The notes beneath the pieces are model-generated. The model did not search any database, was not told where the DNA came from, and worked only from the letters and a program-made list of their open reading frames with translations. Shown here in pieces: positions 3,801-38,209 of a stretch of 39,248 nt of DNA (positions are counted from its first letter, which is position 1; every line of letters starts with the position of its first letter). Made by a program: the position numbers and the translations under genes. The stretch comes from an uncultured Bacilli bacterium (GTDB taxonomy: Bacteria; Bacillota_I; Bacilli_A; RF39; UBA660): contig CANRIE010000002.1 of the NCBI GenBank assembly GCA_947630585.1, positions 1 to 39,248 of the forward strand, given 5' to 3'.

Positions 3801-5519
3801 ATAATTAGCATTATCATGTAAAATTCTTGTTAATATTTCAACATTTCTCATATTTTTATAATCATCAGTAATAATAACAAAATATGGCATATAATTTCGA
3901 AAATCAGGATTATCAACAACATTAGTTCTTTCTTTATCACGATATCTTCTACTCATATATACTTCCATTAAGTATAAAGATATTTGATTAATTTCTTCTT
4001 TGCAAGTTCCAAAAAATCTAAATGTTTTTTCATTATTCCATACAAATGGCGTTAATTTTAAATATTCAAAATAACCTTGATTCTCTTCACTTGTTAAAAC
4101 AACTATTTTCAAGTCTTCAAAACTATGATAAGAAATCATTTGTAAAACCATTGTATCTAAAAATTGATAACCAAGCTTAATGTCTGATGTGATTGCCATA
4201 ATATATTTTTCCGTTAAATTAACTGTAACCGGAACATTTTCTAATTTTTTTTCATCTCCACCAACTTGAAATAATAAGTTTTTTAAATTATCATCAACTA
4301 AGGTAAATCTTTCTTTTTCATATTCAACCTCAATATCAGCATCAATATTTCCAATTCCAATTCTGATATTTAAAAAATCATCATGACTTAGTTTTCTCTC
4401 CCACATATTCGTTTGTTTATTTATAAGAATTTCAAAACATTTATCATTACTTAAATTATTTTCAAGTAATATAAACTTTTGTTCTTCCATTTTATCAGTT
4501 ATATCTTTAGCTCTTTCATTTACATAATTAGTATATTTTTCTTGACGTAATTTTTCTTTCTTTTTGTTATGATTTTTTTGCCATATTCTGGAAATCAAAG
4601 GAACAACAAATGATGCGAATAATGTAATAAATGTAATTATCAAAGTTGGAGCAATATCCTTGAATGTTACACCATTTTGTCCTACCCTAGATATTGTTGT
4701 ATATAAAGTCATACTACTACTTGCTGCCATCGTCATAGAGGATGCTAATGTCAAAAAGAATGGCATTCCTTCTGGATCTTGATTTTCAGGAGGTGAATCA
4801 ATATGAATTTTATCTGACACGATATTTCTTTTAAATCTTGGAGTCCTAAAGAAGTAATCCTCTTCAGAATAAATATCTAATTCTTCATCAATTTCACTTT
4901 TAGGAGAAACTGTACTAAGTCCTATTGGTTTTAATTTATTATTATTAATGCTTACCGTATTAAAAGGATTATTAATAATCATATAGTTTCCAAGTACAAC
5001 TATTCTAAGCCCTAAAATAAATATTACATCTCCATTATAAAGTCTTTCTTTTTTAACGCTTTTATTATTTAAATATACTAAATAAGTATCTGTTAAAACT
5101 TCAATAAACCAAGCATTATCATAATAGATCCGAACACTAAAATTATTTAAATAGTTATTTCGGTAGTAAATATCTGAGTTATTAGTTCCTATCATAATTG
5201 ATGCATCTTGAACATTATATAATGTTGTTTTATCATAAGTTGGTAGGCAATATAAAATATACTTGTAATCACTTTTTCGATATAATATTTCACATGAAAA
5301 ATAATCAGTTAAATTAATACTTCCAACTGGAGTATTATTAACAATGATAGCAGTATCAGCAGTATTAGTAAGTAACCATTTGCCATCTTTTTCTTTAATC
5401 GTAATCAAATCAATTTGATTACCATTTTCATCTATGTCAACAATTTGAAAGTCACCATAAATTGTATTTGGTAATGTTGTTGTTATAATTCTTTCTTTCT
5501 TAAGAATTAATATCTTCAT
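882..5519 (-). CDS. essC: EssC/YukB-type FtsK-SpoIIIE family T7SS ATPase
   Basis: 1545 aa. The N-terminal region is FHA-like and is followed by a TM segment (FFLTLASSMTMAASSSMTLY, LIITFITLFASFVVPLI). Repeated P-loop ATPase domains are present (GMTGSGKSEF, VSGSGKELV; Walker B IISDEFAEL). It sits next to WXG100-like and YukD-like genes. Confidence 0.9.
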   Translation of the reverse strand: MKILILKKERIITTTLPNTIYGDFQIVDIDENGNQIDLITIKEKDGKWLLTNTADTAIIVNNTPVGSINLTDYFSCEILYRKSDYKYILYCLPTYDKTTLYNVQDASIMIGTNNSDIYYRNNYLNNFSVRIYYDNAWFIEVLTDTYLVYLNNKSVKKERLYNGDVIFILGLRIVVLGNYMIINNPFNTVSINNNKLKPIGLSTVSPKSEIDEELDIYSEEDYFFRTPRFKRNIVSDKIHIDSPPENQDPEGMPFFLTLASSMTMAASSSMTLYTTISRVGQNGVTFKDIAPTLIITFITLFASFVVPLISRIWQKNHNKKKEKLRQEKYTNYVNERAKDITDKMEEQKFILLENNLSNDKCFEILINKQTNMWERKLSHDDFLNIRIGIGNIDADIEVEYEKERFTLVDDNLKNLLFQVGGDEKKLENVPVTVNLTEKYIMAITSDIKLGYQFLDTMVLQMISYHSFEDLKIVVLTSEENQGYFEYLKLTPFVWNNEKTFRFFGTCKEEINQISLYLMEVYMSRRYRDKERTNVVDNPDFRNYMPYFVIITDDYKNMRNVEILTRILHDNANYGFSLITIDRSLRRLPDSAKVFIDVNENNSLMLEPDLTKGTKQEFKADLNTLNMKLLTTKVANVPIEFQEGRFSLPATYTFLEMYNVGRVEQLNVINRWRDSNPINSLQAPVGISETGDLLSLDVHEKVHGPHGLIAGMTGSGKSEFIITYILSMAVNYHPDEVSFVLIDYKGGGLAGAFENKDTGVKLPHLAGTITNLDQSEITRALSSLNSELRRRQKIFNAARDKLNESTIDIYKYQKLYRNGQVDEPMSHLIIISDEFAELKMQQPEFMDELMSIARIGRSLGVHLILATQKPSGVVNDQIWSNSRFKVCLKVQDRSDSMDMLKRDDAASITNTGAFYLQVGFNEYFYYGQSAWSGAPYYPSDFRIKKIDTAMDFINNYGAVYKTIDNIKNNNVKSQGEEITSIVKYLDEVAYKENIMVPQLWLNRIPNFIKLDSLKNKYNYKSDLYINPVIGEFDDPVNQQQHILTLPISESGNTIVYGVSGSGKELVLTTVVYSCATTYSPEEVNFYILDFSSETMTALRNLPHVGDVILSNDKDKLENLFKLINTYLEDRKRLFLNYGGNINEYKKSTKKNIPAVIVMINGFDSFSELYPDYVELLSKYARECPRFGIYFMLTANGTNSVRFKLSQNFKLILALELNDKSDYYSVLGKTNIMPSKAVGRGLVKVGEGIYEFQTAHPSKQAESAEFFKKLAIELNAKYKTKAIKIPVLPEKVNMALVSDKLDNLNNIPVGIYKDTLEVSLYDFKREFFNKITASELENTLSFTKELLSEFNSLTKFKTYLFDSSDTIKENYVNITKYNNKFDEVLNSVTENVDKIYAEFEASGFDNNIASKYQPMLFVIYDFNNFKTKLTIDIGATMTNLFNKAIKLPIINFVVIDAVDNFKKIEYESWFKTVSSPDNAIWIGEGIANQFTIKLTRSSDRALQTPLSNDFGYSVVNGKHALMKVLTFDSNNFNEVNKKMESSVEELL

Positions 5520-6284: not shown

Positions 6285-7880
6285 CTATCCTACAGTCTCT
6301 ATTTTTTCTTCTGTATTAACTTTTAAATTAGCAGACAAATTTTTAACAAAATCTTCTAAGTTAACTAACTCAACTGAACTACTTAGTGGAACATAATAAT
6401 CTTTTCCATCTGATGAATCATTAATTAAAGCAAATTTAATGCCATTATCTTCAAGAGTTCCTTTAACAAAATAAACAGCATCTGGATTAGAATATTTTGT
6501 TAATACATCATCACCAATTTTAGTCGATGTCATTAGCATTGCTTCTTCATTCATCTTCAATACTTGTGAATAATTAGTAGTAAATGCCGTCGTATTATTA
6601 ATTTCAGCATAATAATATTTTTTTAAATCTTGATCATAAATTTTATAAAAATACTTATTATCGTATAAATAAATTCCTACAACATCATATTTTCCTGTTA
6701 AATTAGATTGTATAGTTGATGTTGCTCCTAATGTTTCGTATAATGGAGCTATAGCAGTAAATGTTAAACTTCCAACTACCCCTATTATACTTTCAGTAGG
6801 TTTTTCAGGTGGTTTAGAATTAGAACCGCCACCATCGCCAGGAATATTTATAAAACCAGAACTTCCACCAGAACCTCCACCTGGAGATGGTACCCTATCT
6901 GTCCCTTCTGCTGTTTTGATTGATTTTTCAATTTTTCCATATATGTCTGAAAGACAATCACTAAGATATTTTAAAACCTTATTAATCTTAGTTTTAAACA
7001 TAACAGAATCACTAAACTCTTCTGATATATCTTTTAATTTATTTTTAGTTTCATCATTTAATTCATCAAACAATAAATCAAACTTATATGGTGCAGCTTT
7101 TTCATCATATAAAATTTCAATATCATCTAAAATATTATATAATTTTCCATTCAATTCTTTTAACTCATCAGTATCAAATTTAGAAAATTTATCAGTTGCA
7201 TCTTTATCAACAAAACTTTCCTCAGGAACAACAAAGCCTGTAAATGTAAAAGGCAATTCATTAGTTGGTGGTTCTTCATTTAAAATTTCCGTTTCAGATG
7301 GCTCAGGTTCATCATTTATGTCAGAAATTGAATTTGCAGTCGGTTGGGCATTAAACATTGCATTCAACGTTTCAGGTGAAGTGCCAGGATTTTTTGCTGC
7401 ATAGGCAGTAATTGCATTATTATAAGCCTCTGTATCAGTACCAAACTCCTGAATTAAAAGTGCTGAAATAGGTAATCCCTGAGCTTCAGCAGCTGGTATA
7501 AGAGTATTTCTAACATAATCTTCATTACATTTTCCATCTAGAAAATCAACAACAAATTGCTTTTCAGCATCACTATAACTACCAGCTATTGATTGGGGCT
7601 GAGTTGGTGCTGAAGGAGTTTCTGGTGCCACTGGCTCAGAAGCAATTCTACTATTTAAATCTGCCTCTGACATATTGTGCCGTTCAGCATATAGATTTAT
7701 TGCTCTAGTATCCTGATTTGGCAAGTAACAGTTTTCACTTAAAAGTTCTTTGATTGATAATCCTTGTTCTTCACCAGATGGTATAATCATATCATTTACA
7801 TAAAGTTCATCATAACCCCATCCAAAAGCATTTTTAAAAAGTTCCCGTATAATTTCTTTATCTTCATCACTATATTGCAT
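6285..7880 (-). CDS. Single-pass membrane protein with a duplicated N-terminal module, T7SS-associated
   Basis: The start is taken at the ATG of MQYSDEDKE (AAAGGAG RBS); the ORF-track start is an upstream TTG. Two ~80-aa internal repeats are present (YSDEDKEII...IPSGEEQGLSIKELL and YSDAEKQFV...IPAAEAQGLPISALL). These are followed by a helical region, a Gly/Ser/Pro linker, a TM segment (IIGVVGSLTFTAIAPLY) and a beta-rich C-terminal domain. Confidence 0.6.
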   Translation of the reverse strand: MQYSDEDKEIIRELFKNAFGWGYDELYVNDMIIPSGEEQGLSIKELLSENCYLPNQDTRAINLYAERHNMSEADLNSRIASEPVAPETPSAPTQPQSIAGSYSDAEKQFVVDFLDGKCNEDYVRNTLIPAAEAQGLPISALLIQEFGTDTEAYNNAITAYAAKNPGTSPETLNAMFNAQPTANSISDINDEPEPSETEILNEEPPTNELPFTFTGFVVPEESFVDKDATDKFSKFDTDELKELNGKLYNILDDIEILYDEKAAPYKFDLLFDELNDETKNKLKDISEEFSDSVMFKTKINKVLKYLSDCLSDIYGKIEKSIKTAEGTDRVPSPGGGSGGSSGFINIPGDGGGSNSKPPEKPTESIIGVVGSLTFTAIAPLYETLGATSTIQSNLTGKYDVVGIYLYDNKYFYKIYDQDLKKYYYAEINNTTAFTTNYSQVLKMNEEAMLMTSTKIGDDVLTKYSNPDAVYFVKGTLEDNGIKFALINDSSDGKDYYVPLSSSVELVNLEDFVKNLSANLKVNTEEKIETVG

Positions 7881-10073: not shown

Positions 10074-11396
10074 TTATAATTCATAAGTTTTAATATCTGG
10101 TAATTCTCTTTCCTCAAATTGGACTTCGATATTACTATCTGGATTAAGTTTATAATCAGGTGTTAATTTAGTTTTATAAGGTAAAAGTCTTGGAAGTAAG
10201 ATAATCGCTTCAAATATTTTCATATCTTTTAATTCTTGAACACTAATTAACCGTTCATGTTTTTCAGTTTCGCCACACATTATACTAATTTCATCCATTG
10301 TAGAAAAGTCATTACTTCTTAAATAAATAATATTACTAAAACCTAATTTAAGAATATTTATATCATTATAGTTAGCTTTTAATTCCGTGAAACTTTTAAT
10401 AGCACATAAGAATCTTATTTTAATACTTCTTGCATAATTAAGAATATTAGAAAAATCTTTAATTGGAGCTATTTCATCAAAATTATCTAAGATAAAATTA
10501 ACCATATCTTTAACACCATAATATTTAATAGCCTCATATAATTGATTTAATAAAAGTGAGGTTAAAGAATTAGCATATAAACTATCTCCAACTATAACAA
10601 TGGCAAATTTTTCTTTTAGTATTTCTTCAAATTTAAATTCACTTTTAGAAAGTAATTTTGATAAATTAGTTCTAGATACATAAGCTTTAATTTTATAATT
10701 GAAAACGGATATGATACTATTTTTAACATCATCTGGTGCATTTAAAGTACCTGTTAATAGCATATAAATTGAATTAGTTTTACTTAAACTATTCATTAAT
10801 TTTAAACTTTTTTCATTATCACTTAAACTATTAACAATTAAATAAATACTATTTAAGTTAATCTCTTCTTCCTTAGCATTTTCGAATAAATATAAACTTA
10901 TTCCTTTAAAGAAATCAATTGTTACATTAGTCCAATAAGGATCTGATTCATTAGTATCCGAAAATAGATAGTAACCTATTTCATCAAGTAAGTTATAAGC
11001 TAAATCAAAGTTATCTTTTTTATAAAGTTCATATGGTAAACTTAATGGATTAAAGCAAGTACTTAATTTTGGATTTTCAAAATTAAAAATATAAGTTTTA
11101 TAGTTTGATGCTTCAAGTTCATTTTTAACCTTCGCATATTCTTCACCTTTCTTATCAATTATAACCATTGATTCTCCTGATTTAATTGTTGTTCTCATAA
11201 ATGGCAAGACAACACTTTGAGTTTTCCCACTTCCGGTTCCTGCTATAACAAGCGTGTGGCCATCCTTACCTTCGACATAAACTTTGTCCTTATCATAGAT
11301 AAGTGGAATTCCATTTTTAAAATTTCCTGATGTTAAATTATTTTCAGTTAAACTATCAAGTATTTCTCTGGTTGTTGCTAATCTAGCATATTTCAT
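10074..11396 (-). CDS. VirD4/TraG-family (type IV coupling protein-like) P-loop NTPase lacking an N-terminal TM anchor
   Basis: Walker A is VIAGTGSGKTQSVVLPF, with FNPL and DPYW motifs and a Walker-B-like FILDNFDEI. At 440 aa it is shorter than canonical coupling proteins. The weak hairpin TCCCT/AGGGA plus a T-run follows its stop. Confidence 0.65.
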   Translation of the reverse strand: MKYARLATTREILDSLTENNLTSGNFKNGIPLIYDKDKVYVEGKDGHTLVIAGTGSGKTQSVVLPFMRTTIKSGESMVIIDKKGEEYAKVKNELEASNYKTYIFNFENPKLSTCFNPLSLPYELYKKDNFDLAYNLLDEIGYYLFSDTNESDPYWTNVTIDFFKGISLYLFENAKEEEINLNSIYLIVNSLSDNEKSLKLMNSLSKTNSIYMLLTGTLNAPDDVKNSIISVFNYKIKAYVSRTNLSKLLSKSEFKFEEILKEKFAIVIVGDSLYANSLTSLLLNQLYEAIKYYGVKDMVNFILDNFDEIAPIKDFSNILNYARSIKIRFLCAIKSFTELKANYNDINILKLGFSNIIYLRSNDFSTMDEISIMCGETEKHERLISVQELKDMKIFEAIILLPRLLPYKTKLTPDYKLNPDSNIEVQFEERELPDIKTYEL

Positions 11397-15226: not shown

Positions 15227-17197
15227 TTATTCAGGCAAACCTATTGTGTAGGCAGTATCAGGACTCATCCCATCTCCCGAAGTTATTATTACTTCAGACT
15301 TTAGAAAAATAGTAGGACGTGTGGCTTGAAGATCATATGGTTGAACAGTAGTAAGACCACCATCATAATTTGCTCGAAATACTTGATAAGATGAGGTATT
15401 TGTAGTAGCTGGTGTTATTAACCATAAATTTTGTAGAGTATCATTACTACCACCTCCTAATATTGCTGAAAACATTTCTCCTACTCGAGGTAGTCCAACG
15501 AGTCCTGTCCATGTACTACTTGTTTTTGTACAATTTTTAGTTGTTTCGTTAATATCTTCTTCTAAACATATAGCTATTTTATAATTTCCTTTCGATGAAT
15601 ATGTACTTACAGTTCCTAAATAATATGTTCCTTCTGTTATATATTTTTTTAAATTATCAGTTAGCCACACGTTATTTAAATAATAACCCCACCAACTATC
15701 ATTACCATTCACTGAGTGTTCCCAACTTGTATCGTTTAAAATATATGAATAACTTTTTCTTAATATATTATTTTTTTCATCTCTTACATAATCTGTACTT
15801 ATTAATTTAGTTGTTCCATTATCTTCTACATTAATTATTCTATAAATTTTATCATCTACTTTGACATACTCCCCACTTAATCTTGTATTTACTTTTTCAT
15901 TCGCTTTTCCAATTTCTTTATCCACTTTTATACGATAAGGATTGTCCTTGCTTCCATCTCCAACGTCTGTAATCAAAACTTTAGATTTTAAATTAACAAC
16001 AGGACGCGGAGATGCACTAGAAAGAGAGCTTTGACAAGCATTATGATAACCATTAGTATCTACTATTTGAATCATATTTTTACTTTCACATGGAGTTATT
16101 AATTTCCAATAATAGCCTATATTTAAATATCCATTTTTATAAGCATCAGAAGTAGTGCCTAATTTTAGATAACTTTGATAATATTCATATGTATTTAATA
16201 AACCAACAGCTCCATTTACTATTTTTCCCGTAATTGGTGGTTTTTTTGGCGTAGTACCAAGATAAGATGAATTCCAACTAGCATCTTCTACAATTGTTTC
16301 TTCATAATTATATAAGGTACTCAAGAAATCTTCATTTAACCATTGATATATCCATGAACCTTCATAGGTTGAAGTTTCATTCCAGTGTAACGATCCCATT
16401 AAATCTTGAGTAATTATTTTTATTGTCTCATCAGGATTAATTGCTACTATTCTCCATAGTTTTCCGGAATACCAGATATAATTGAAATTAATTGTCTCAT
16501 TACTACCTGATAAATAAATTGTTCCATCCGTATCTGTTATAGAATTGCTATCATTTATCTTTTCTTTAATAGTTTTATATAATGATATACCAACAGATTT
16601 TTCTTCAAAATCTCCATTTACTGATACTTTGATACTTGCAAATACATCATTATTCCATACTTTACTTGAGTAATCAGCACCTTCTATATCTCCAATACTA
16701 ACTTCATCTGTTATCCACATATATAATCTATATTTAATACTTGTCTTAGTTTTAGTATTAGATGCAATTGTATTAACCCATATTTTTGTGTTATCTATCT
16801 CCTCATAAGTTCCATCTTCAATAACTGGAGTAACTTCATCACCTACTATTTCTTCAAGTCTAAATCTTAAGAATTTATCATCAAGTCTTGTTTTTCTTGT
16901 TTCATGTTCTTCTCCATGATTTATTAATATTTCATAATAAATATCTTTAGAATATGTATTCTTGCCTTCAATTGTAAATTCAAAATAAGTTTCAGGGTCA
17001 TAACTACTCCTTGGCATCATTAATTCAGCATTAATGACAGTATTACTTTCGGTATATTTCATAAATACATCGCCTGCAACTAAGACTTGATTTTCAGTTG
17101 TATTTACAAATATAAAATAAGCAAAAGCTCCACTTATTACCCCTACCATAACTAATAAGGTTATTAGTCCTACTATTAATATTTTTTTATTATTCAT
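15227..17197 (-). CDS. Paralog 1 of a secreted/surface protein family (TasA-like signal region plus two WLITP...RP lectin-like modules)
   Basis: 656 aa with a GGAG RBS. The N-terminus is a KK-hydrophobic stretch ending GAFAYF, followed by VLVAGDVFMKYTESN. There are two modules ending YYWKLITP...SPRPVVNLKS and NLWLITP...ATRPTIFLKS. The N-terminal third is similar to 36318-37958 and the remainder is similar to 24828-26777. Confidence 0.8.
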   Translation of the reverse strand: MNNKKILIVGLITLLVMVGVISGAFAYFIFVNTTENQVLVAGDVFMKYTESNTVINAELMMPRSSYDPETYFEFTIEGKNTYSKDIYYEILINHGEEHETRKTRLDDKFLRFRLEEIVGDEVTPVIEDGTYEEIDNTKIWVNTIASNTKTKTSIKYRLYMWITDEVSIGDIEGADYSSKVWNNDVFASIKVSVNGDFEEKSVGISLYKTIKEKINDSNSITDTDGTIYLSGSNETINFNYIWYSGKLWRIVAINPDETIKIITQDLMGSLHWNETSTYEGSWIYQWLNEDFLSTLYNYEETIVEDASWNSSYLGTTPKKPPITGKIVNGAVGLLNTYEYYQSYLKLGTTSDAYKNGYLNIGYYWKLITPCESKNMIQIVDTNGYHNACQSSLSSASPRPVVNLKSKVLITDVGDGSKDNPYRIKVDKEIGKANEKVNTRLSGEYVKVDDKIYRIINVEDNGTTKLISTDYVRDEKNNILRKSYSYILNDTSWEHSVNGNDSWWGYYLNNVWLTDNLKKYITEGTYYLGTVSTYSSKGNYKIAICLEEDINETTKNCTKTSSTWTGLVGLPRVGEMFSAILGGGSNDTLQNLWLITPATTNTSSYQVFRANYDGGLTTVQPYDLQATRPTIFLKSEVIITSGDGMSPDTAYTIGLPE

Positions 17198-22413: not shown

Positions 22414-22908
22414 TTAATTATTATTTATTTTTTTAACAGTTAAGGTTGCATTAACTCCACTACTTAGATTTACTCCTAATGAGACTAGTGCCGAAAGTGC
22501 CATATCAATTACATTGCCACTACTTAAATTAACAATTGTACTACCACTATAAACGGAACTGGTTCCAACTGATAAGACTCTGGAAATGACAGTTGAGGGG
22601 ATATTCGTTCCGTTATTTCTAACTGCAAGAGTTAACGTAGTTCCAACTGATGCTGAGACATTTAAAAAGTAATTTATTTCATAAACACCTGTTTGGTTTA
22701 TCGTGATACTATTGTTAGTTGTATAGCTAGTGTTCGAGCCTGGCATCGTTGTTGGAAGAGGGATTTGACTTTGGGTTAGTATTCCTAGGTTAAGAGTACT
22801 AGCTGTATTGTTGAAACGTCCTCCATAGGCTTGAAGTCCCCCAGCGGGGCCCGCAGGGCCAGTTGGCCCTTGGGGAATAACAAAATTTAGAGTATACCCT
22901 GAATTCAT
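22414..22908 (-). CDS. BclA-like protein: short collagen-like repeat plus C1q/TNF-like beta-sandwich C-terminal domain
   Basis: It has an AGGAG RBS. The N-terminus is [19 protein letters not shown] (GXY repeats), followed by a ~135-aa Ser/Thr/Asn/Val-rich domain with the BclA C-terminal pattern (GVYEINYFLNVS...LAVRNNGTNI...LSSGNVIDMAL...ATLTVKKI). Confidence 0.7.
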   Translation of the reverse strand: MNSGYTLNFVIPQGPTGPAGPAGGLQAYGGRFNNTASTLNLGILTQSQIPLPTTMPGSNTSYTTNNSITINQTGVYEINYFLNVSASVGTTLTLAVRNNGTNIPSTVISRVLSVGTSSVYSGSTIVNLSSGNVIDMALSALVSLGVNLSSGVNATLTVKKINNN

Positions 22909-24827: not shown

Positions 24828-26777
24828 CTAATTTTTTTTATTATTTTCACTTGGTAACCCAATTGTATAGGCACTTTCAGGACTCATTCCATCTCCTCCA
24901 GTTATTTTAACTTCTGGTTTTAGATAAATGGATGGCCGCGTGCCATGTTGATCCGAAGAAGGGCCGGTGCTGCCGAGACTTCCATTGTTAAAGACAAAGG
25001 ACATGTTCGAGCCACTATATGGTGTTATTAACCATATATCTGCTAAGGTATCATTATAACCTTTACCTAGCATTGCCGAAAACATTTCTCCCATTCTTGG
25101 TAATCCTACTAAACCTCGCCAAGTAGTTGTTGTTTTTTCACAACTACTTGCTGGTTCTGTTGTATTGCTTGCTCTACATATTGAATTTTTAAAACTCGTA
25201 ACCTCTCCTACTTGTCCCAAATAATAAGTCCCATCTGTTATATATTTTTGAAGTTCAGTTGTTAACCATGTATTATTCAAGTAATAACCCCAATGCCACA
25301 CGTTGCCGTTTGATACTACTGTTCCATAATTTCTTATTGAATTAGAACTGGAAAAATTTTTAGTTAAGACTGTATCACCATCTCTTACATAATCGACACT
25401 TGTTAATTTGGTTATGTTATTACCCTCATCATCTTTATCTATTCCTACTATTCTATATATTTTATTATCTACTTCGACATACTCACCACTTAATCTCGTA
25501 TTGATTAAATCTCCATTATTTCCTGATTCTTTATCATCATTTATTCGATATGGATTAGTCTCACTTCCATCTCCACCTGCTACTATTCCGATATTTGATT
25601 TTAGATTTATAGATGGACGAACACCCTTTGCTCCCGAAAAGGGATTGTTATTGCTGAGATTGCCATATTCGCTGACGTACCATACATTCGAACTAACTGG
25701 TGTTATTAACCACCAATTATATCCATTTTTCAAATATCCTCTTGAAGAAATTGTATTTTTATAACTTTGATATTGTTCATACGCATTTAATAATCCTACA
25801 TCTCCAGTTACCATTGTTGTTTCAGGTATTTTCGTAGTATAACTTGTAGTTTCTGTTGCATTCCAAGAGGCATCTTTGACTATTATATTCTCATAATTAT
25901 ATAAGGTATCCTTAAAATCTTCATTTAACCATTGATATATCCAGGAAGCTTTATAGTTATCTTTATCTTTATTTTTATATATTGTATCTTCTCCCCAAGA
26001 TATTGCTGTTATTTCATCTTGGGTTATTAATTTCATGGAACCATCTGAATTAATTGCTACTATTCTCCATAGTTTTCCGGAATACCAGACATAATTGAAA
26101 TTAACACATTCGTTATCTCCTGAAAAATAGATTATATCATCACTTGGATCACTTGGGGTTCCATTATCATCTGTTAAAGTTGGAGTACATGTATCAGTTG
26201 TATGACTTGCAATTGCTTCTATTAAAGTATCTTTTAAAGGCATAGTCTTATCTAAATTTTGATTACCTTCTACTACTACTTTAGCTTTAAACTCTTTATT
26301 CATATAAGTATTATCGGCAGTTTCCATAAGCCATACTTTAACATGATATTCACTTGTTTCTCCTACTTTTAATTTACCTTCACTTTCTATATATTTATCT
26401 TCACTTAATATTTTAGGTTCAGAATAACCTTTATTATCTTTATTTACTATATATTTTATAACTGTTTTAAATTCAGGATCAGTAGATAACTCTTCAATAT
26501 AAACATTATAATTAGCAACTAAGTTACCTGTATTTTTTACTTGGAATACTAATTCTTGTTCTAAACTCTCACCTTCTTCATCAGTCATAGGATACATATT
26601 AGATAGATTTAAAAACTGAGTTTTCGAGTCCTCAAATGTAACTTCTAATGTACCTACATTAATTACATAATTATTAGTAGATTCTTTAGTATACATTAAA
26701 TAAGCATAACTAGAGCCTAGTATTAATACTAAACTTAATGTTATTATCATTATTAATAAATTTCTTTTATTATTCAT
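24828..26777 (-). CDS. Paralog 2 of the secreted/surface protein family (TasA/camelysin-like N-terminal domain plus two WLITP...RP modules)
   Basis: 649 aa. The N-terminus GSSYAYLMYTKESTNNYVINVGTLEVTF...LNLSNMYP...VFQVKNTGNL parallels the TasA/CalY pattern. The C-terminal two thirds are collinear with paralog 1, including a 56-nt block with a single mismatch (26049-26104 versus 16436-16491). Confidence 0.8.
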   Translation of the reverse strand: MNNKRNLLIMIITLSLVLILGSSYAYLMYTKESTNNYVINVGTLEVTFEDSKTQFLNLSNMYPMTDEEGESLEQELVFQVKNTGNLVANYNVYIEELSTDPEFKTVIKYIVNKDNKGYSEPKILSEDKYIESEGKLKVGETSEYHVKVWLMETADNTYMNKEFKAKVVVEGNQNLDKTMPLKDTLIEAIASHTTDTCTPTLTDDNGTPSDPSDDIIYFSGDNECVNFNYVWYSGKLWRIVAINSDGSMKLITQDEITAISWGEDTIYKNKDKDNYKASWIYQWLNEDFKDTLYNYENIIVKDASWNATETTSYTTKIPETTMVTGDVGLLNAYEQYQSYKNTISSRGYLKNGYNWWLITPVSSNVWYVSEYGNLSNNNPFSGAKGVRPSINLKSNIGIVAGGDGSETNPYRINDDKESGNNGDLINTRLSGEYVEVDNKIYRIVGIDKDDEGNNITKLTSVDYVRDGDTVLTKNFSSSNSIRNYGTVVSNGNVWHWGYYLNNTWLTTELQKYITDGTYYLGQVGEVTSFKNSICRASNTTEPASSCEKTTTTWRGLVGLPRMGEMFSAMLGKGYNDTLADIWLITPYSGSNMSFVFNNGSLGSTGPSSDQHGTRPSIYLKPEVKITGGDGMSPESAYTIGLPSENNKKN

Positions 26778-33905: not shown

Positions 33906-34157
33906 TTATTTAATTATATAATCTAATATTTTTAATATTAAATTAATCTTATAATAATAATTATATTTATTATCTATAACATTATATAATTTAATATCTA
34001 ATCCATCTAATATTAAATAATTAATATTATTAATACCAAATAAATTAAATATATCTAAATCCTCATCAAAACTTACTAACTTATCTTTATTTTTAATTAA
34101 GATAAGATAATCTTTATATAAATTCTTACAAAATATAAATCTTTTATATTTACTCAT
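33906..34157 (-). CDS. Small hypothetical protein downstream of the DGR TR (possible second MutS-domain-I-like accessory)
   Basis: An 83-codon ORF is long for chance in such AT-rich DNA. No clear RBS is present. The segment LILIKNKDKLVSFDEDLDIFNLFGI loosely resembles the GDFYE-F--DA----LGI core of MutS domain I. A hairpin AAACTAGAGA/TCTCTAGTTT follows the stop. Confidence 0.4.
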   Translation of the reverse strand: MSKYKRFIFCKNLYKDYLILIKNKDKLVSFDEDLDIFNLFGINNINYLILDGLDIKLYNVIDNKYNYYYKINLILKILDYIIK

Positions 34158-34283
34158 ATAGTTCTAAACTTAAGTACGTATACTTAAGTTATCTATACCT
34201 TTCTTCTGATAAACTCAAGGATAGGATTGTCCTTTACACGATTAATATTAAACCTTAATCTAATATTCAAGTAATAAAGGTCT

Positions 34284-34388
34284 CGGGCGAACGGCATTAT
34301 TATTGTTCACGTTGTTCGAACTTACGTTCCCAGTCGTATTCCAATTAGCAACATTATTAGAGTTGTTAGAGGACGGAGACAAAAGCCA
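34284..34388 (-). repeat. DGR template repeat (TR)
   Basis: This 105 nt starts 12 nt after the RT stop and aligns without gaps to 36399-36503. The coding-strand sense reads WLLSPSSNNSNNVANWNTTGNVSSNNVNNNNAVRP, dominated by AAC/AAT codons. Confidence 0.9.
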
Positions 34389-34400
34389 CAACTCGCCAAT

Positions 34401-35507
34401 TTAATTTATCCTACCCCAAAAATATTTATTAACAATATTTTTAACTTTAATATTATTTGTATATTTAAAACTATAAAGATAAGTATTAATACTTGAAAAA
34501 CATTTTTCAAAACTAATATAACCTTTATTATATAAATACTTAACTTCTTTAACTCTTCTTTTTATTTTCTTTAAAGTATCTTTTTTTATTTTTATAATTG
34601 TTTTATTATTTTTAATAATAAAACGATATCCTAAAAAACAAAATCCTTCTTTACTACTTACTATTTTTGTTTTCTTTTTATTTATTTCTAATTTATAATC
34701 ATTATTTAATATCTTTTCAATTTTATTTAAACATTCTTCTAAATATTTCTTATTAGGATGCATGATTATAAGGTCATCCATGTACACTATTGTGTATTTA
34801 AGATGTAAATCATGAACAATATAATGAATTAATCTTGATAAATAAAATATTGATAGAAATTGACTAGTCATAGCTCCAAGTCCTAACCCTTTACCATCTT
34901 TATATCTTGGTAAATCATTTAATTTATCTTTATCATAAGGTCTTTTCTTAATCATTTCAACAATCCTAGAATCAATATCAGAATTTATATAACTACTATT
35001 AGTACTATCAATTATTCTACTAATTAATGTATATTCATCATTATCTAATTTGCATTTAATCAAACTCTTTAATACATCATGGTCTATATTATAAAAATAC
35101 TTTTTAATATCAATTTTTAATATATAAAAATTACCATATTTCTTACATTTTTCTAAATACTTTTTAACTAACTTAATTCCATAATCTACACCATATCCAC
35201 TTCTAGTTGCAACTATTCTATTATCTAAATATTTATCTAATTTTGGAATTAAAACATATCTTGCTAAATAATGATTAATAACTTTATCTTTAATTCTTAA
35301 AGACATTACTATTCTATACTTAGGTTCTCTAATTATAAATATATTATATTTACTAGGATAATAACTCATATTAGTAAGTTCATTATAGATATTTATGATA
35401 TTTTGCATTTTATTTCTTTCAAATACATAAACTTTTTTCTTATTCTTAGTATTCTTTCTAATTTCTAAATCATAAATATCTATTAAATCTTTAATATTAA
35501 CTTTCAT
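34401..35507 (-). CDS. DGR-type reverse transcriptase
   Basis: 368 aa with the catalytic motif VYMDDLIIMH and GLGAMTSQFLS (the [I/L]GxxxSQ signature characteristic of DGR RTs). No maturase/endonuclease domain or intron RNA is present. It overlaps the Avd-like gene by 11 nt, and TR lies immediately downstream. Confidence 0.9.
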   Translation of the reverse strand: MKVNIKDLIDIYDLEIRKNTKNKKKVYVFERNKMQNIINIYNELTNMSYYPSKYNIFIIREPKYRIVMSLRIKDKVINHYLARYVLIPKLDKYLDNRIVATRSGYGVDYGIKLVKKYLEKCKKYGNFYILKIDIKKYFYNIDHDVLKSLIKCKLDNDEYTLISRIIDSTNSSYINSDIDSRIVEMIKKRPYDKDKLNDLPRYKDGKGLGLGAMTSQFLSIFYLSRLIHYIVHDLHLKYTIVYMDDLIIMHPNKKYLEECLNKIEKILNNDYKLEINKKKTKIVSSKEGFCFLGYRFIIKNNKTIIKIKKDTLKKIKRRVKEVKYLYNKGYISFEKCFSSINTYLYSFKYTNNIKVKNIVNKYFWGRIN

Positions 35508-35835
35508 CTTGAATCCATTTAAACAACATCTTATTAATACTAAGTAATCTATTACTTAATTTAATAGATTGTTTTTCACTTATTATCCTCTTCTTAAAAC
35601 TTTGCTCTATATAAAAGTCAATTAAATTAACTTTCATAATAGTTTTAATTTGAATATCTTTTCTTTTATCTATATTAGTATAATTAGCAGTATAAACTAG
35701 TTCTAATAATTCATAACTATCATTAACTAATCTATTTCTAAGTTCAAAGTATTTTCTAGGATAATTAATTAAATAATCATCAAGTATCATAATAAATTCT
35801 TTAATATATTTAGCAATAACAAACTTATCATTCAT
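35497..35835 (-). CDS. avd: Avd-like (accessory variability determinant) four-helix-bundle protein
   Basis: 112 aa, basic and predicted all-helical. The YPRKYFELRNRL and EKQSIKLSNRLLSINKMLFKWI pattern resembles the Avd / 23S-rRNA-IVS protein family. It is translationally coupled to the RT. Confidence 0.75.
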   Translation of the reverse strand: MNDKFVIAKYIKEFIMILDDYLINYPRKYFELRNRLVNDSYELLELVYTANYTNIDKRKDIQIKTIMKVNLIDFYIEQSFKKRIISEKQSIKLSNRLLSINKMLFKWIQDES

Positions 35836-36187
35836 TTACAATACTAGATATAGTTTCTAGTATTCTATCTAATTTTTCAGGACTTACTTTTTTAACCTTT
35901 TCAACTAAATCTTTATAATTAGTATCTTTCTCATATTTTTCTTTTCCTAATCTTACAAATTTTAAATATTTATTTAAGTTCTTAAAGTTATTATTGTTAT
36001 CTTCTCCTATAACTTCATAACTAATCTTATTTTCTTCTAATTTATTTATTACTTTATTAAGTGCTGATTTAGGAAACCCTACTTTATTATTTTTAATTTG
36101 ATAGTTAAAAAGATAATAAAGAATATAACAATCATCATCATAAGTACTATAAAAAGTACCACTTCTTCTTATCTTGATAACATTCAT
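35828..36187 (-). CDS. Small MutS-domain-I-like protein (MSL-type DGR accessory candidate)
   Basis: 119 aa. RRSGTFYSTYDDDCYILYYLFNYQI...KVGFPKSALNKVINKLEENKISYEVI parallels the MutS mismatch-binding domain core (GDFYE-F--DA...G-P...L...KL...GY-V-I). It overlaps the avd start by 8 nt. Confidence 0.5.
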   Translation of the reverse strand: MNVIKIRRSGTFYSTYDDDCYILYYLFNYQIKNNKVGFPKSALNKVINKLEENKISYEVIGEDNNNNFKNLNKYLKFVRLGKEKYEKDTNYKDLVEKVKKVSPEKLDRILETISSIVNE

Positions 36188-36287
36188 ATAACTATAAAAC
36201 TATTCCTTTCTTTTATTAATTTATATAGTTAAACTTTCAATCAAAACCATTTCTACTAATGGTTAAACCCCTTGATATATAAGGCGG

Positions 36288-36315
36288 TTTCCGGACGTCT
36301 TTGCCGTCCAGGAAA
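36288..36315 (-). other. GC-rich hairpin 3 nt downstream of the DGR target stop codon
   Basis: Stem TTTCCGGACG / CGTCC(A)GGAAA has one bulged A and a 7-nt loop, and is unusually GC-rich for this genome. No T-run follows. Confidence 0.5.
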
Positions 36316-36317
36316 CT

Positions 36318-37958
36318 CTATGCTATTTCAGGGTAATATGGAGTATTCAAACTTCCATCTCCATCTGTTATTTTTATATCGGATATTAGATTAACGGACG
36401 GGCGAACGGCAATATTAGAGCTCACGTTGAGCGAACTTACGCTCTCAGTCGTATCCCAATTAGCAACATCAGTAGAGTCGTGAGAGGACGGAGACAAAAG
36501 CCATCCATAGTTACTTGGCATACTATTCATCCAACTTGCTGATTTTATACTACTAAAATCTTTTAATTGCTTATCCCAATTATCATTTTCACTGCTTACT
36601 GAAAAGCCATAATCGCTTGGATACATTAAGGCAATTTTTCCTTCCCAGGTTGCTTGATTTTCTTTCCACACTTTACATCCATTTTCACTTTCAGATTTTC
36701 CAGTATTTTCAACGCAACTTGCAACATCTCTTTCATTCGCATAGGCTTCTTTTGGATTATCAATTATTCCTGTATAACTTTCAGGATCATAAGTTACTGT
36801 TCCCAAATAATATTTGGTGTCTTTTATCATATCTTTGGCATTTTTACTTAAGTAACTCATGTACCCATCACTTGGTTGTTTTGTATATTTATCAATTCCA
36901 GCATTTAACCAATATTGGAGTCCTGCTGTTGCCCAGTCATTATTGTATGTTCCACTTGTTTTTTTATTCCAATAAGCATAGTTCCCACTTGTATATTGAA
37001 TATTATATTCAGTTCCACTTGCAGAAAAAGTTGCAGGGAACATATCTCTTGTTAAAACTTTATTATTAACTATTTTTAAGTGTTCTTCTCCACTTTCATC
37101 TTTGAATACTCCGATTATTCTCCATATTTCACAATTAGAACTTGCAGTTTCATAAGTTGTATTATCACTACAATTAAAATAAATATAATTCTTTATTCCA
37201 TCATTTCCAGAATAACGATATTCTCTTACCTCATCATCTTTTGAAGTTGTTGGAGTATTATCAGATTTTACTCCAATTACTCCTCCTGCTTGGCCTATAG
37301 TATCTTTAACAACATCAGTTCCAATTTCACTTTTAATTTCTTTCTCATCAAAGTCACCATTTACGGATACTTTGATACTTGCAAAAACATTATCATTCCA
37401 TGTTTCCATATCATAATCAGCAAGACTTGTATTTCCTATATTAGTCTTAGGGGATATCCACATATATAATTTATACGTTATTTCTACATTATCTGTATTT
37501 GCATCTATTGTATTTATCCATATTGCTTTTCCATCTTTTATATTACTATAACTTGCATTATCTAATACTGTTTTATCAACTCCATCTTTGGTTTCTACTA
37601 ACCTAAACATTAATAAGTTATCTTTTATTCTTTCTGTTCTTTCTGTATTTTCATCTCCTGTTGGTTCTTCTCCCCAATTTAAAACTATTTCATACCAAAT
37701 TGGTTTTGAATATTTATTCCTTCCTTCGATTGTAAACTCGAAATAATCATCATCACCTGGTTCAGCTTTAGGTAAAGCATTTGTAATTGATAGTTCATTA
37801 GATTCCGTATATTTCATGAATACATCTCCGCTTATCAAAACTTGATTTTGGAGCGTATTTGAATATGTCCATATTGCAAATGTTACTCCGAATATTAGAA
37901 CTAAACAAATCGCTGCTATAACTCCAACTATAACTCCCTTTTTACGTTTATTTTCCAT
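36318..37958 (-). CDS. Paralog 3 of the secreted/surface protein family; DGR target (variable protein)
   Basis: 546 aa with a GGAGGAAATAG RBS. The signal-like N-terminus and N-terminal domain are closely similar to paralog 1 (NQVLISGDVFMKYTESN, YFEFTIEGRNKYSK, ASIKVSVNGDFDEK). The C-terminal module GWLLSPSSHDSTDVANWDTTESVSSLNVSSNIAVRPSVNL carries the VR. Confidence 0.85.
   Translation of the reverse strand: MENKRKKGVIVGVIAAICLVLIFGVTFAIWTYSNTLQNQVLISGDVFMKYTESNELSITNALPKAEPGDDDYFEFTIEGRNKYSKPIWYEIVLNWGEEPTGDENTERTERIKDNLLMFRLVETKDGVDKTVLDNASYSNIKDGKAIWINTIDANTDNVEITYKLYMWISPKTNIGNTSLADYDMETWNDNVFASIKVSVNGDFDEKEIKSEIGTDVVKDTIGQAGGVIGVKSDNTPTTSKDDEVREYRYSGNDGIKNYIYFNCSDNTTYETASSNCEIWRIIGVFKDESGEEHLKIVNNKVLTRDMFPATFSASGTEYNIQYTSGNYAYWNKKTSGTYNNDWATAGLQYWLNAGIDKYTKQPSDGYMSYLSKNAKDMIKDTKYYLGTVTYDPESYTGIIDNPKEAYANERDVASCVENTGKSESENGCKVWKENQATWEGKIALMYPSDYGFSVSSENDNWDKQLKDFSSIKSASWMNSMPSNYGWLLSPSSHDSTDVANWDTTESVSSLNVSSNIAVRPSVNLISDIKITDGDGSLNTPYYPEIA
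36399..36503 (-). repeat. DGR variable repeat (VR)
   Basis: The 105 nt show 13 mismatches to TR. Twelve are at positions that are A in the TR coding strand (30 A in total). The VR ends 26 codons before the stop. The A-free GC-rich 3' end GCCGTTCGCCCG is identical to TR. Confidence 0.9.
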
Positions 37959-38005
37959 TTCTATTTCCTCCTTCTGGGCTTACGCCCCTCTACTATTACA
38001 TTTTC

Positions 38006-38034
38006 ATTATAAAATATTTTTAGGATTTTAGCAA
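38006..38034 (-). promoter_or_regulatory. Putative gene-proximal promoter of paralog 3
   Basis: On the minus strand, TTGCTA, a 17-nt spacer and TATAAT lie between the cassette terminator and the RBS. A small GGGC-GTAA-GCCC hairpin follows. Confidence 0.45.
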
Positions 38035-38057
38035 GTCTTTTTTTAAATCCTCATGTG

Positions 38058-38112
38058 AAAAAAGACATATTTAAAATAAGTATTATCAATACCATATTTT
38101 ATATGTCTTTTT
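38058..38112 (-). terminator. Intrinsic terminator inside the upstream cassette of paralog 3
   Basis: Stem AAAAAGACATAT / ATATGTCTTTTT has additional inner pairing AAAATA/TATTTT, and a T-run follows on the minus strand. It shares the GACATAT core with the other two cassettes. Confidence 0.65.
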
Positions 38113-38137
38113 GTATCTTTTACTATACTTTGAATAA

Positions 38138-38209
38138 CTAAAAGTGGTAGCCCCCCCCCAATGTCGACAAGTAGTTAACATACATATTTATCATATTTAC
38201 TATATTCAT
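38138..38209 (-). CDS. Conserved 23-codon sORF containing a G9 tract (MNIVNMINMYVNYLSTLGGGYHF)
   Basis: The AAAGGAAGTG RBS lies 6 nt upstream of the ATG. The homopolymer at 38151-38159 encodes Gly-Gly-Gly. The nucleotide sequence has diverged from the other two cassettes, but the peptide core YVN-L-T-GG-Y and the reading frame are kept. Confidence 0.55.
   Translation of the reverse strand: MNIVNMINMYVNYLSTLGGGYHF

Follow-up and report, generated by a model that had tools for sequence, protein, structure and literature searches.

Does the short repeat beside a reverse transcriptase (RT) gene at this locus belong to a complete diversity-generating retroelement (DGR), and if so what does the element diversify, with which helper genes, and is it still at work? 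We analysed the 39,248-nucleotide stretch of DNA that carries it, referred to here as the window; its host is an uncultured low-GC gut bacterium and the GC content of the window is 26.5%. An earlier note on this DNA had proposed a complete chromosomal DGR acting on one member of a surface-protein family. Our analysis leaves us highly confident that the element is a complete chromosomal DGR of the type containing a MutS-domain-I-like (MSL) gene (Architecture D, Wu et al. 2017), resident in the chromosome.

Anatomy of the cassette

On the minus strand the cassette runs target, conserved hairpin, MSL, Avd, RT, structured TR RNA and ORF83 (Table 1), and all five of its ORFs are intact; the gene order given earlier (target, MutS-domain-I-like ORF, Avd-like ORF, RT, TR, 83-aa ORF) and the absence of a frameshift are therefore as the earlier note had stated. 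A repeat search returned a single ungapped 105-nt direct repeat, TR and VR, of 88% identity. Our recount agrees with the 13 mismatches reported earlier, 12 of which lie at the TR adenines (30 A in 105 nt; hypergeometric p 4.7e-7), so that mismatches are not spread evenly over the four bases. The one non-adenine mismatch is a TR G that is A in VR, at 36445. All 13 fall at codon positions 1 or 2, both copies decode exactly as previously given, and a TR with 13 AAY codons allows a theoretical ~1e17 protein variants. VR has a GC content of 50%, against 26.5% for the window, and no second VR emerged when the window was searched from end to end with wildcards in place of the TR adenines. TR and VR share the A-free GC-rich 3' end, GCCGTTCGCCCG, without a single difference, and homology stops directly past it, as had been noted; it is the likely 3' boundary of the transferred information and is similar to the GC-rich part of an IMH. 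The description of this end as IMH-like thus holds for the GC-rich stretch, but the diverged IMH/IMH* pair of the BPP-1 DGR is not visible in the window DGR.

Table 1. Features of the DGR cassette, in minus-strand order.
Feature	Position	Strand	Remarks
Target (variable protein) gene, 546 aa	36318..37958	-	ORF; VR in C-terminal DUF6273-like domain
VR	36399..36503	-	Target residues 486-520; in frame
A-free GC-rich VR 3' end, GCCGTTCGCCCG	36399..36410	-	Identical to TR 3' end 34284-34295
GC-rich conserved hairpin, GTTTCC-T-GGACG-[GCAAAGA]-CGTCC-GGAAAC	36287..36316	-	Covariation in relatives
MSL accessory gene, 119 aa	35828..36187	-	MutS domain I fold in N-terminal half (~60 residues), then two long helices
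Avd accessory gene, 112 aa	35497..35835	-	Pfam bAvd E 4.4e-7; NCBIfam DivGenRetAVD E 2.4e-8
DGR reverse transcriptase, 368 aa	34401..35507	-	RVT_1 E 8e-20
5' strand of TR-enclosing long-range RNA helix, GGGUAGGAU	34408..34416	-	Within last RT codons
TR	34284..34388	-	Non-coding; begins 12 nt past RT stop codon; 30 adenines, 13 AAY codons
Structured spacer 3' of TR	34167..34280	-	Strongly conserved in alignment of 8 relatives
CCUUUAU:GUAAAGG pairing	34280-34274 : 34237-34231	-	Within post-TR spacer
3' strand of TR-enclosing helix, AUCCUAUCC	34227-34219	-	In post-TR spacer
Terminal hairpin of post-TR spacer	34190-34167	-	Consensus structure
ORF83, 83 aa	33906..34157	-	Conserved fifth cassette gene

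The RT carries YMDD at residue 242 and LGLGAMTSQ (LGxxxSQ) at residues 208-216. Its best PDB match is 8ub7_A, a 328-aa RT (E 7e-16) that we take to be the Bordetella phage bRT, with group II maturases at 3e-6 or worse, and it is on these best matches and motifs that we place it in the DGR clade together with the RT of BPP-1. Its dN/dS of 0.17-0.29 against relatives indicates that the RT is under purifying selection. Avd is basic (pI 9.35) and its gene overlaps MSL by 8 nt and RT by 11 nt; the Pfam bAvd match spans 105 of 107 model positions, and both Avd scores in Table 1 lie under the curated cut-offs. Adenine-specific mismatches, an RT with 8ub7 as its best solved relative and an Avd model covered over its full length together bear out the DGR reading.

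The target is acidic (pI 4.55), and in its AF2 model (mean pLDDT 88) an N-terminal membrane anchor (helix 4-34) is followed by a beta-sandwich domain (~40-205) and the C-terminal DUF6273-like domain. The best match of a fold search in BFVD is a DUF6273 phage protein (E 1.9e-8). DUF6273 is matched by 13 of 64 members of the target family, the window target itself scoring under the Pfam threshold (E 0.017). Phage DUF6273 proteins have been described as CLec-like (PMC10743442), and the modelled C-terminal module would thus be CLec-like by indirect evidence. The C-type-lectin fold suggested earlier is accordingly supported through these phage proteins, but no solved Mtd/TvpA-type CLec variable protein appears among the best 50 PDB fold matches. 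Neither of the two target paralogs in the window (15227-17197 and 24828-26777) was found to contain a VR, consistent with the claim that one member of the family is diversified.

Among the closest known systems are the DUF6273 DGR variable proteins of gut phages, namely the tentaclins and the Faecalibacterium prophage targets (PMC10743442, PMC11792537). Unlike these, the window target is a cellular protein with non-diversified paralogs, in which the DUF6273-like domain is fused to a membrane anchor and a beta-sandwich. Similar to the window element, the DGRs of Treponema denticola (TvpA) and Legionella (LdtA) are chromosomal or cellular and act on a surface-exposed protein by varying its C-terminal module. 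Both of these proteins are lipoproteins bearing DUF1566/FGE-type CLec domains, and the window target gave neither a sequence nor a fold match to them; moreover, the Treponema DGR has HRDC instead of MSL.

MSL and a second, probably MutS-like gene

The AF2 model of MSL (mean pLDDT 88.8) has only MutS or MSH domain I among its top Foldseek matches in the PDB, with rmsd 1.2-1.9 Å over ~60 residues. In hhalign MSL aligns with residues 1-117 of E. coli MutS (P 1.9e-4), placing F12, a residue present in all 61 of 61 sequences, on F36 of the E. coli protein. Structure prediction, fold search and profile alignment thus corroborate the earlier description of this ORF as MutS-domain-I-like. The MSL family comprises 913 representatives; of 32 members, 3 match Pfam MutS_I. 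The MSL-containing DGRs that make up Architecture D, the Legionella DGR among them (Wu et al. 2017, PMC5758913), likewise have a small MutS-like accessory protein, of 112-283 aa, a range that includes the length found here, and as in the window it occurs alongside avd and without HRDC. The window protein is more basic (pI 9.1 versus 7.2 ± 1.7), and in contrast to these DGRs the window's clade keeps a second, shorter MSL-related ORF, ORF83.

ORF83 is a conserved gene of the cassette and no bystander. It encodes a basic protein (pI 8.9; GC of the gene 10.7%) and has a dN/dS of 0.34-0.84. DGRs located elsewhere in the chromosome have a 40-55% identical homolog in the equivalent position, and a seed HMM found 75 such ORFs among 98 loci (97 relatives' loci and the window cassette). 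Against the MSL family hhalign gave P 7.6e-6 and a score of 33.2, compared with at most 13.6 in 21 controls, of which 20 were column shuffles and one a reversal, and judged from these profiles ORF83 is probably a truncated MSL relative. In the publications consulted we found no description of an ORF83-type second MSL-related gene.

Activity, setting and alternative readings

We found 483 related RT loci in genome bins and retrieved 80 of them. Dozens of genome bins from uncultured gut "Bacilli" share this architecture, at differing housekeeping sites and most commonly in the order target-MSL-Avd-RT-ORF83; 27 loci have a TR-like repeat pair, nearly all A-biased, and at one (L018) all 22 of 22 TR/VR mismatches are at adenines. 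Activity in the window's clade is seen in a sister element whose RT is 67% identical and in which variation is restricted to VR: its ten contigs share one TR and have three VR alleles. Between contigs with one and the other of the two main alleles there are 18 differences in the 112-nt VR and 0-1 in ~2,900 flanking nt, and of the 19 columns that vary in VR, 5 do not correspond to TR adenines.

For the window copy it is possible, if the less favoured view, that the DGR is fossil or dormant, its VR having been diversified in the past and being now a fixed allele of an element that is silent or very rarely active. Comparison with a second strain from another sample (L098) gave no sign of activity, as its VR is identical to that of the window, the non-A G-to-A change included, despite 14 differing sites in MSL and RT. 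However, the grouping of 12 of these 14 inside 88 nt points to a recombination tract; the strains may thus be very close to each other, and the identical VR is therefore weak evidence. The low number of alleles in the sister element, with each main one common to several samples, would also fit dormancy, as would a remnant of the same cassette without RT in a related genome bin (L003), which shows that cassettes of this lineage do decay. In the window, by contrast, the five ORFs and catalytic motifs are in place, dN/dS of RT and MSL together spans 0.17-0.37, the cis RNA and DNA structures are intact, and so is the TR, which is identical in a second assembly (L001) where the adjoining ORF83 has 5 substitutions. 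The adenine-specific mismatches record that the DGR has already rewritten the tip of its target. We favour a resident DGR whose window copy may still be active.

That the DGR is instead borne by a phage or ICE and diversifies the receptor-binding protein of a mobile element is improbable. The C-terminal domain of the target is structurally like phage DUF6273 proteins, but the protein is anchored in the membrane at its N terminus and has paralogs in the chromosome; the window does contain an FtsK/SpoIIIE-type ATPase (882-5519) and a VirD4-like coupling protein (10074-11396), but these conjugation-type genes lie >20 kb off with housekeeping genes between, and a search of the window for capsid, tail, terminase and integrase genes came up empty. 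The cassette does occupy differing chromosomal sites across genomes, but relatives adjoin gatAB/gyrBA and hrcA-grpE-dnaK, and here cmk-alaS-holA and mreCD are directly adjacent, with a class II aminoacyl-tRNA synthetase, sufB, ssb, relA and gltX also among the neighbours, in keeping with the chromosomal, non-phage setting described before. Effectively refuted is ordinary duplication or gene conversion beside an unrelated group II intron, retron or defence RT, for which sub-threshold NCBIfam matches of the RT to group II RT/maturase (E 4e-25, 88.6 bits versus a cut-off of 300) and to Drt3a could be cited, but against which stand the adenine-specific mismatches, the Avd gene overlapping RT, the lead of 8ub7 by ten orders of magnitude among solved relatives, the dozens of relatives with the same cassette and A-biased TR/VR pairs, and the lack of any intron or retron RNA family found in the window.

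Conserved structures and a proposed mechanism

Returning to the resident DGR, the GC-rich hairpin begins 2 nt past the target stop codon and 82 nt past the VR end. In 11 relatives 93.4% of cells are paired versus 71.7% in shuffles, both-sided changes occur at 7 of 11 pairs, and pairing is at most 55% with partners slid. It is a candidate target-recognition hairpin or cruciform; it could instead be an RNA or terminator element, although it has no U-tract. The helix enclosing TR, between GGGUAGGAU and AUCCUAUCC, comprises 9 base pairs, and compensatory changes occur at 3 of these (RNAalifold, 8 relatives); the consensus structure of these relatives shows covariation both here and in the terminal hairpin. 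By analogy, the helix is a candidate counterpart of the BPP-1 'cPRT Stop' duplex (bioRxiv 10.1101/2023.10.23.563531), and CCUUUAU:GUAAAGG a candidate template:primer duplex.

The prototype BPP-1 DGR (mtd-avd-TR-brt) has in common with the window adenine-specific TR-to-VR information transfer, an Avd partner, a VR with GC-rich terminus at the target 3' end, a GC-rich hairpin downstream of it, and a TR RNA enclosed by upstream-spacer pairing, with a short duplex alongside, at the 3' end of TR. The hairpins differ in that the window's has a 7-nt loop and lies 82 nt from VR, compared with a 4-nt GRNA loop and 4-34 bp in BPP-1 and phage DGRs. In addition, the window DGR is chromosomal rather than phage-borne, is ordered target-MSL-avd-RT-TR rather than target-avd-TR-RT, has two extra MutS-like genes, and acts on a membrane-anchored cell-surface protein rather than a tail-fibre tip.

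We propose that the overlapping MSL, Avd and RT genes probably form one translation unit, with the TR RNA directly after RT and held in a scaffold in which the long-range helix would pair the last RT codons with the spacer. Beside this helix, just 3' of TR, the short CCUUUAU:GUAAAGG duplex would position the primer, by analogy with the Bordetella phage bRT-Avd-RNA complex. Reverse transcription would begin a few nucleotides beyond the TR 3' end and halt at the enclosing helix, the RT-Avd complex copying TR into cDNA with misincorporation opposite adenines. The cDNA would then take the place of VR in the 3'-terminal part of the target gene, probably guided by the common GC-rich end and the conserved hairpin past the stop codon. 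Because GC skew makes the minus strand the leading strand, the target is co-directional with replication, an orientation favoured in DGRs (PMC12875486), and its coding strand would therefore be the lagging-strand template, open to cDNA annealing. The outcome would be variation at up to 17 codons (13 AAY) of an exposed C-terminal DUF6273 (CLec-like) module, presumed to bind ligand, on a membrane-anchored surface protein. DGRs of this kind are already known; the element carries two small MutS-like helper genes, whose MutS-domain-I-like products probably both act on the mismatched cDNA:VR heteroduplex.

The repeat pair and the cassette genes

The window element is a complete, intact chromosomal diversity-generating retroelement (DGR) of the MSL type, named for its MutS-like gene, and it has clearly rewritten the variable repeat (VR) in a single paralog belonging to a surface-protein family. 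A repeat search of the 39,248-nt window (26.5% GC) returned a single 105-nt direct repeat, gap-free and of 88% identity, whose two copies are the template repeat (TR) and the VR. On the minus strand 13 positions distinguish the copies, and at 12 of these the TR has an adenine and the VR C, G or T; with adenine content in the TR at 30 of 105 nt, the probability that at least 12 of 13 mismatches fall on A by chance is p = 4.7e-7. The earlier note had described the pair in these terms (105 nt, no gaps, 13 mismatches, 12 at A) and was accurate in every checkable detail; realignment did not spread the mismatches over the four bases. The lone exception is a TR G that is A in the VR, and all 13 mismatches fall at codon position 1 or 2. 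The VR lies in frame in the 3' part of the target gene, where it encodes residues 486-520 of a 546-aa variable protein, and the 13 AAY codons of the TR would in theory give about 1e17 protein variants, the TR itself being non-coding and outside every listed ORF. The final 12 nt of both repeats, GCCGTTCGCCCG, are A-free, GC-rich and identical, with similarity stopping right beyond them. The earlier description of this end as IMH-like fits its GC-rich composition, but no diverged IMH/IMH* pair was seen. Scanning the whole window with TR adenines as wildcards revealed no second VR.

The minus-strand gene order proposed previously, from the target through MSL, Avd (the accessory protein), RT and TR to ORF83, was confirmed, with MSL and Avd each overlapping the next gene (see table).

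Features of the DGR cassette and of other loci discussed in the window
Feature	Position	Strand	Remarks
FtsK/SpoIIIE-family ATPase	882-5519	minus	1,545 aa
VirD4/TraG-like type IV coupling protein	10074-11396	minus	
Paralog 1	15227-17197	minus	656 aa, target N-terminal domain
BclA C-terminal domain protein	22414-22908	minus	164 aa
Paralog 2	24828-26777	minus	649 aa, target N-terminal domain
Target	36318-37958	minus	then 130-nt gap
VR	36399-36503	minus	105 nt
Post-target hairpin	36316-36287		2 nt past target stop codon, 82 nt past VR
ORF119 (MSL)	35828-36187	minus	119 aa; 8-nt overlap with Avd
Avd	35497-35835	minus	112 aa; 11-nt overlap with RT
RT	34401-35507	minus	stop codon 12 nt before TR
TR	34284-34388	minus	105 nt; then 126-nt spacer
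TR-enclosing helix	34416-34408 with 34227-34219		last RT codons with spacer, 9 bp
TR 3' duplex	34280-34274 with 34237-34231		CCUUUAU:GUAAAGG
Terminal hairpin of TR spacer	34190-34167		just ahead of ORF83 start codon
ORF83	33906-34157	minus	83 aa; last in order, after TR spacer

The RT matches Pfam RVT_1 (E 8e-20) and carries the motifs LGLGAMTSQ and YMDD, which fit the [ILV]GxxxSQ and YxDD of the DGR clade. Its top solved relative in a PDB search is 8ub7_A, a 328-aa "Reverse transcriptase" (E 7e-16) which we take to be the Bordetella phage bRT, as its length and its IGSLTSQ/YMDD motifs fit; in the same search group II maturases and a Cas6-RT-Cas1 protein scored 3e-6 or worse, and no retron or Abi RT was matched. 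By these best PDB matches, by its motifs and by the A-biased TR/VR pairs of its relatives, the RT is most readily placed in the DGR clade. Avd, a basic protein (pI 9.35), matches Pfam bAvd (E 4.4e-7) and NCBIfam DivGenRetAVD (E 2.4e-8) over the full model length, both under curated cut-offs. Compared with relatives, dN/dS is 0.17-0.29 for RT, 0.19-0.37 for MSL, 0.26-0.52 for Avd and 0.34-0.84 for ORF83, indicating weaker selective constraint on ORF83 than on RT, MSL or Avd.

The cassette sits between mreCD and cmk-alaS, and no phage structural genes were found in the window, in keeping with the resident chromosomal, non-phage setting suggested before. GC skew marks the minus strand as the leading strand, so that the target is co-directional with replication, an orientation reported to favour DGR editing (PMC12875486). 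An Rfam scan of the window found two tRNAs only, and a terminator scan found none near the cassette. Among housekeeping genes (gltX, relA) sit the FtsK/SpoIIIE-family ATPase and the VirD4/TraG-like coupling protein, perhaps relics of a conjugative element or a specialised secretion system. Another window protein carries a BclA C-terminal domain (E 3e-16), named after the exosporium protein BclA of Bacillus in which the domain is known.

The variable protein and its paralogs

The target is a DUF6273-domain protein whose VR sits at the C-terminal end of that domain: the window protein matches Pfam DUF6273 at E 0.017 over residues 332-524, 13 of 64 members of its family match (best 4e-7), and a fold search of a viral structure library (BFVD) gave as best match a phage DUF6273 protein (E 1.9e-8), and a further four proteins of this kind were among the top 30. 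The family numbers more than 3,000 homologs, and the window member is acidic (pI 4.55). In its AlphaFold2 (AF2) model (mean pLDDT 88) an N-terminal membrane helix (residues 4-34) is followed by a beta-sandwich (about 40-205) and then by a C-terminal domain of mixed alpha/beta type, whose last strands and loops are those of the VR. The C-type-lectin (CLec) fold proposed earlier for the diversified module is thus plausible, though supported only by way of the DUF6273 intermediate: solved CLec variable proteins of the Mtd/TvpA type were absent from the best 50 PDB fold matches of the full-length target model, and sequence and profile searches against the PDB gave no C-type-lectin match. Foldseek against the PDB with the full-length target returned weak beta-sandwich and adhesin matches only.

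Two window paralogs, 40% identical to each other, share the target's N-terminal domain, and the three proteins have in common a C-terminal end of the form "WL[IL][ST]P ... RP[ST] ... L" ("WLITP ... TRP[ST]I ... L" in the paralogs). In neither did the wildcard scan find a VR for the window TR, which bears out the earlier claim that the DGR acts on one member of a surface-protein family.

A MutS-like gene and a probable second one in the cassette

On its own the MSL protein matches Pfam MutS_I at chance level only (E 0.05), and the case for a MutS-domain-I-like ORF, raised in the earlier note, comes through its fold and its family. The AF2 model is confident (mean pLDDT 88.8), and in a Foldseek search of the PDB the best 50 matches listed were all domain I of MutS, MSH6 or MSH3, superposing at 1.2-1.9 Å rmsd across about 60 residues. 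Alignment of the MSL family with E. coli MutS 1-117 (hhalign) pairs MSL 4-60 with MutS 28-93 at P 1.9e-4. Moreover, 2 of the 54 clusters in the first family search already had a Pfam MutS_I match, as did 3 of 32 family members; a profile search widened the family to 913 representatives out of 1.84 billion, nearly all of them 110-150 aa long. Residue F12, invariant in 61 of 61 sequences, aligns with the mismatch-stacking Phe36 of E. coli MutS, whereas the position of MutS Glu38 is mostly Asn or Ser and is Glu in only 4 of the 61, so that in these sequences the Phe of the Phe-X-Glu mismatch-binding motif is kept and its Glu mostly absent. The window gene is of the type for which Wu et al. 2017 (PMC5758913) defined the MSL accessory gene of Architecture D, namely a small stand-alone homolog of the mismatch-binding domain of MutS that accompanies avd in a DGR, and the window gene lies next to avd; they found MSL in 16 DGRs including the Legionella DGR, always with avd and never with HRDC. 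Sequence searches of MSL against the PDB gave only RbfA matches at chance level, and a Pfam CH-domain match (E 1e-3) was judged spurious, being sub-cut-off, located on the C-terminal helices and without fold-search support. The MSL module also occurs as the C-terminal part of longer proteins, P0414 (489 aa; residues 371-486), P0433 (507 aa) and P0440 (322 aa), which may be fusions of MSL to another DGR component.

ORF83 is a real gene, the conserved fifth gene of the cassette. Homologs 40-55% identical occupy the same cassette position in DGRs at other chromosomal sites, and a seed HMM found 75 such ORFs among 98 loci (97 fetched ones and the window cassette), usually after RT-TR and in 13 loci between target and MSL. 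It is likely, though not certain, to be an MSL relative on the strength of profile comparison: hhalign aligned it with the MSL family over 53 columns at P 7.6e-6 and a score of 33.2, against at most 13.6 in 20 column shuffles and one reversal. The alignment implies that a central beta-alpha unit was deleted, and the MutS Phe position is not conserved; a direct hhalign comparison of ORF83 with E. coli MutS was not significant (P 0.03). On iteration the HMMs of the two genes grew into one another; this was not relied on by itself, and the controlled hhalign comparison took its place. ORF83 has 10.7% GC and no recognisable Shine-Dalgarno sequence, and because the conserved terminal hairpin of the TR spacer leads straight into its ATG, its translation may be tied to DGR RNA folding.

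The MutS dimer is asymmetric, the mismatch being contacted by one subunit only. We can offer, as a speculation that we think improbable, that MSL (stacking Phe kept) and ORF83 (a shortened copy without it) might jointly mimic this dimer and bind the A-derived mismatches in the cDNA:VR heteroduplex, which would hide them from host mismatch repair or bias resolution to the cDNA strand. Were this true, a retroelement would encode its own block or redirection of mismatch repair, and the dense mutations fixed by cellular DGRs would be explained.

Predicted RNA structure, relatives and VR variation

A GC-rich 30-nt hairpin, with a 7-nt loop on an interrupted stem of 11 bp, follows the target gene. 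The same hairpin stands after the target gene in relatives and shows clear covariation, with 93.4% of cells paired compared with 71.7% in shuffles; both sides change in 7 of 11 pairs, and slid partners give at most 55% pairing. Phage DGR hairpins have a 7-10 bp GC-rich stem, a 4-nt GRNA loop and a distance of 4-34 bp from the VR, so that the window hairpin differs in its bigger loop and in lying farther away. In one related locus (L008:3731-3815) two substitutions (GTTTCC to GCTTCC and TTGATG to TTGCTG) each break a base pair of this hairpin, and its VR is the same as that of L009 (compared with L009 and L010); the changes could be sequencing error or mark a disabled target site.

In the alignment of relatives the TR flanks are better conserved than the proteins. 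RNAalifold predicts a 9-bp helix that encloses the TR, with three compensatory pairs, and an invariant duplex immediately 3' of the TR, and the terminal hairpin ahead of ORF83 covaries. In the ribonucleoprotein of BPP-1, the Bordetella phage prototype, the spacer and the TR 3' end form a template:primer duplex, adjoined by a "cPRT Stop" duplex with a segment upstream of the TR (bioRxiv 10.1101/2023.10.23.563531). The window layout parallels this, with an enclosing helix and an adjoining short duplex at the TR 3' side, and the predicted folds suggest that the cassette contains a structured DGR RNA of the BPP-1 kind. By analogy, the TR-flank helices may provide a priming site and act in stopping.

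Scanning one genome for each species with an RT profile gave 483 related loci, of which 80 were fetched. RT relatives are almost all in uncultured "Bacilli", "Tenericutes" or "Mycoplasma sp." gut genome bins, from rabbit, roe deer, goat, sheep and Hadza people, and some bins hold several DGR copies. The dominant order is target-MSL-Avd-RT-ORF83. Cassettes occupy varying housekeeping sites, gatAB/gyrBA or hrcA-grpE-dnaK outside the window, and the TR-like repeat pairs seen in 27 loci are nearly all A-biased. A related genome bin holds a cassette remnant (L003:8001-11468 of MAG GCA_947624175.1, compared with window 35544-38179), in which the target homolog shows 62% identity, the MSL shows 97% and Avd is truncated to 101 aa; homology ends at 35544, with an Abi_2 gene in place of RT, TR and ORF83, and its flanking genes differ (FTHFS/DUF308). 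That the accessory genes are far more alike than the targets suggests that the accessory module was transferred or recombined recently. The same MAG, which also holds contigs L002 and L004, carries an intact DGR (L018:4937-5042 and 7124-7229) with an RT 81% identical and 22 of 22 TR/VR mismatches at adenines. The TR of this DGR does not account for the VR-like ends of the paralogs in L002, L003 and L004: with L004 the best alignment left 17 non-adenine mismatches, and with L002 and L003 no alignment fell within the 20-mismatch limit.

Variation concentrated in the VR was seen in a sister element, known from ten contigs of different samples with one RT (67% identical to that of the window), one TR and three VR alleles. 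Contigs of its two main alleles show 18 differences in the 112-nt VR but only 0-1 over some 2,900 nt of flanking sequence; of the 19 variable VR columns, 14 lie at TR adenines. Its commonest allele (L010-L012, L014-L017) also has four clustered non-A differences from the TR in columns 18-29 (C to A, T to G, C to A and G to T), for which simple adenine mutagenesis does not account. For the window element itself the comparison of strains gave no sign of activity: L098, from another sample, has the exact Avd and a VR, and it agrees with the window throughout the VR and the 3' end of the target, the G-to-A exception included. Between L098 and the window there are 14 differences in MSL and RT, 12 of them within 88 nt (35388-35475) at the RT gene's 5' end and 2 in the rest of 1.25 kb, which looks like a short recombination tract, and with the differences so clustered the two strains may be very close. 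The exact RT was found elsewhere only in L001, a 1.8-kb contig without VR, where the TR is identical while the adjoining ORF83 carries five substitutions; the exact MSL is not on record elsewhere. Two assemblies with the same RT (L006 and L007) come from one strain; 7 SNPs separate them over 17 kb, all outside the VR, so the pair is uninformative. Several contigs break near the target or VR, L005 and L020 just upstream of MSL and L002 just past the target, as one would expect were assembly interrupted by VR heterogeneity within the population.

DGRs of this kind are already known, the MSL type having been defined by Wu et al. 2017. What goes beyond routine annotation is the conserved and probably MutS-like second gene, the covarying hairpin of unusual geometry, the TR scaffold that mirrors BPP-1 and the abundance of the clade, here represented by a complete cellular DGR in a little-known, uncultured, low-GC gut lineage rich in such cassettes, sometimes several per bin. 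With many copies that carry the covarying hairpin and the TR scaffold, the models of priming, termination and target recognition derived from BPP-1 can be put to a comparative test outside phages. A 2026 preprint remarks that the MutS-like genes of DGRs have implicated mismatch repair in retrohoming, and dominant-negative MutL has been added in engineered DGR systems; with its two MutS-like genes, present consistently, the clade suits the question of how retrohoming copes with mismatch repair. The membrane-anchored target, together with its non-diversified paralogs, points to variable surface recognition in small-genome gut bacteria.
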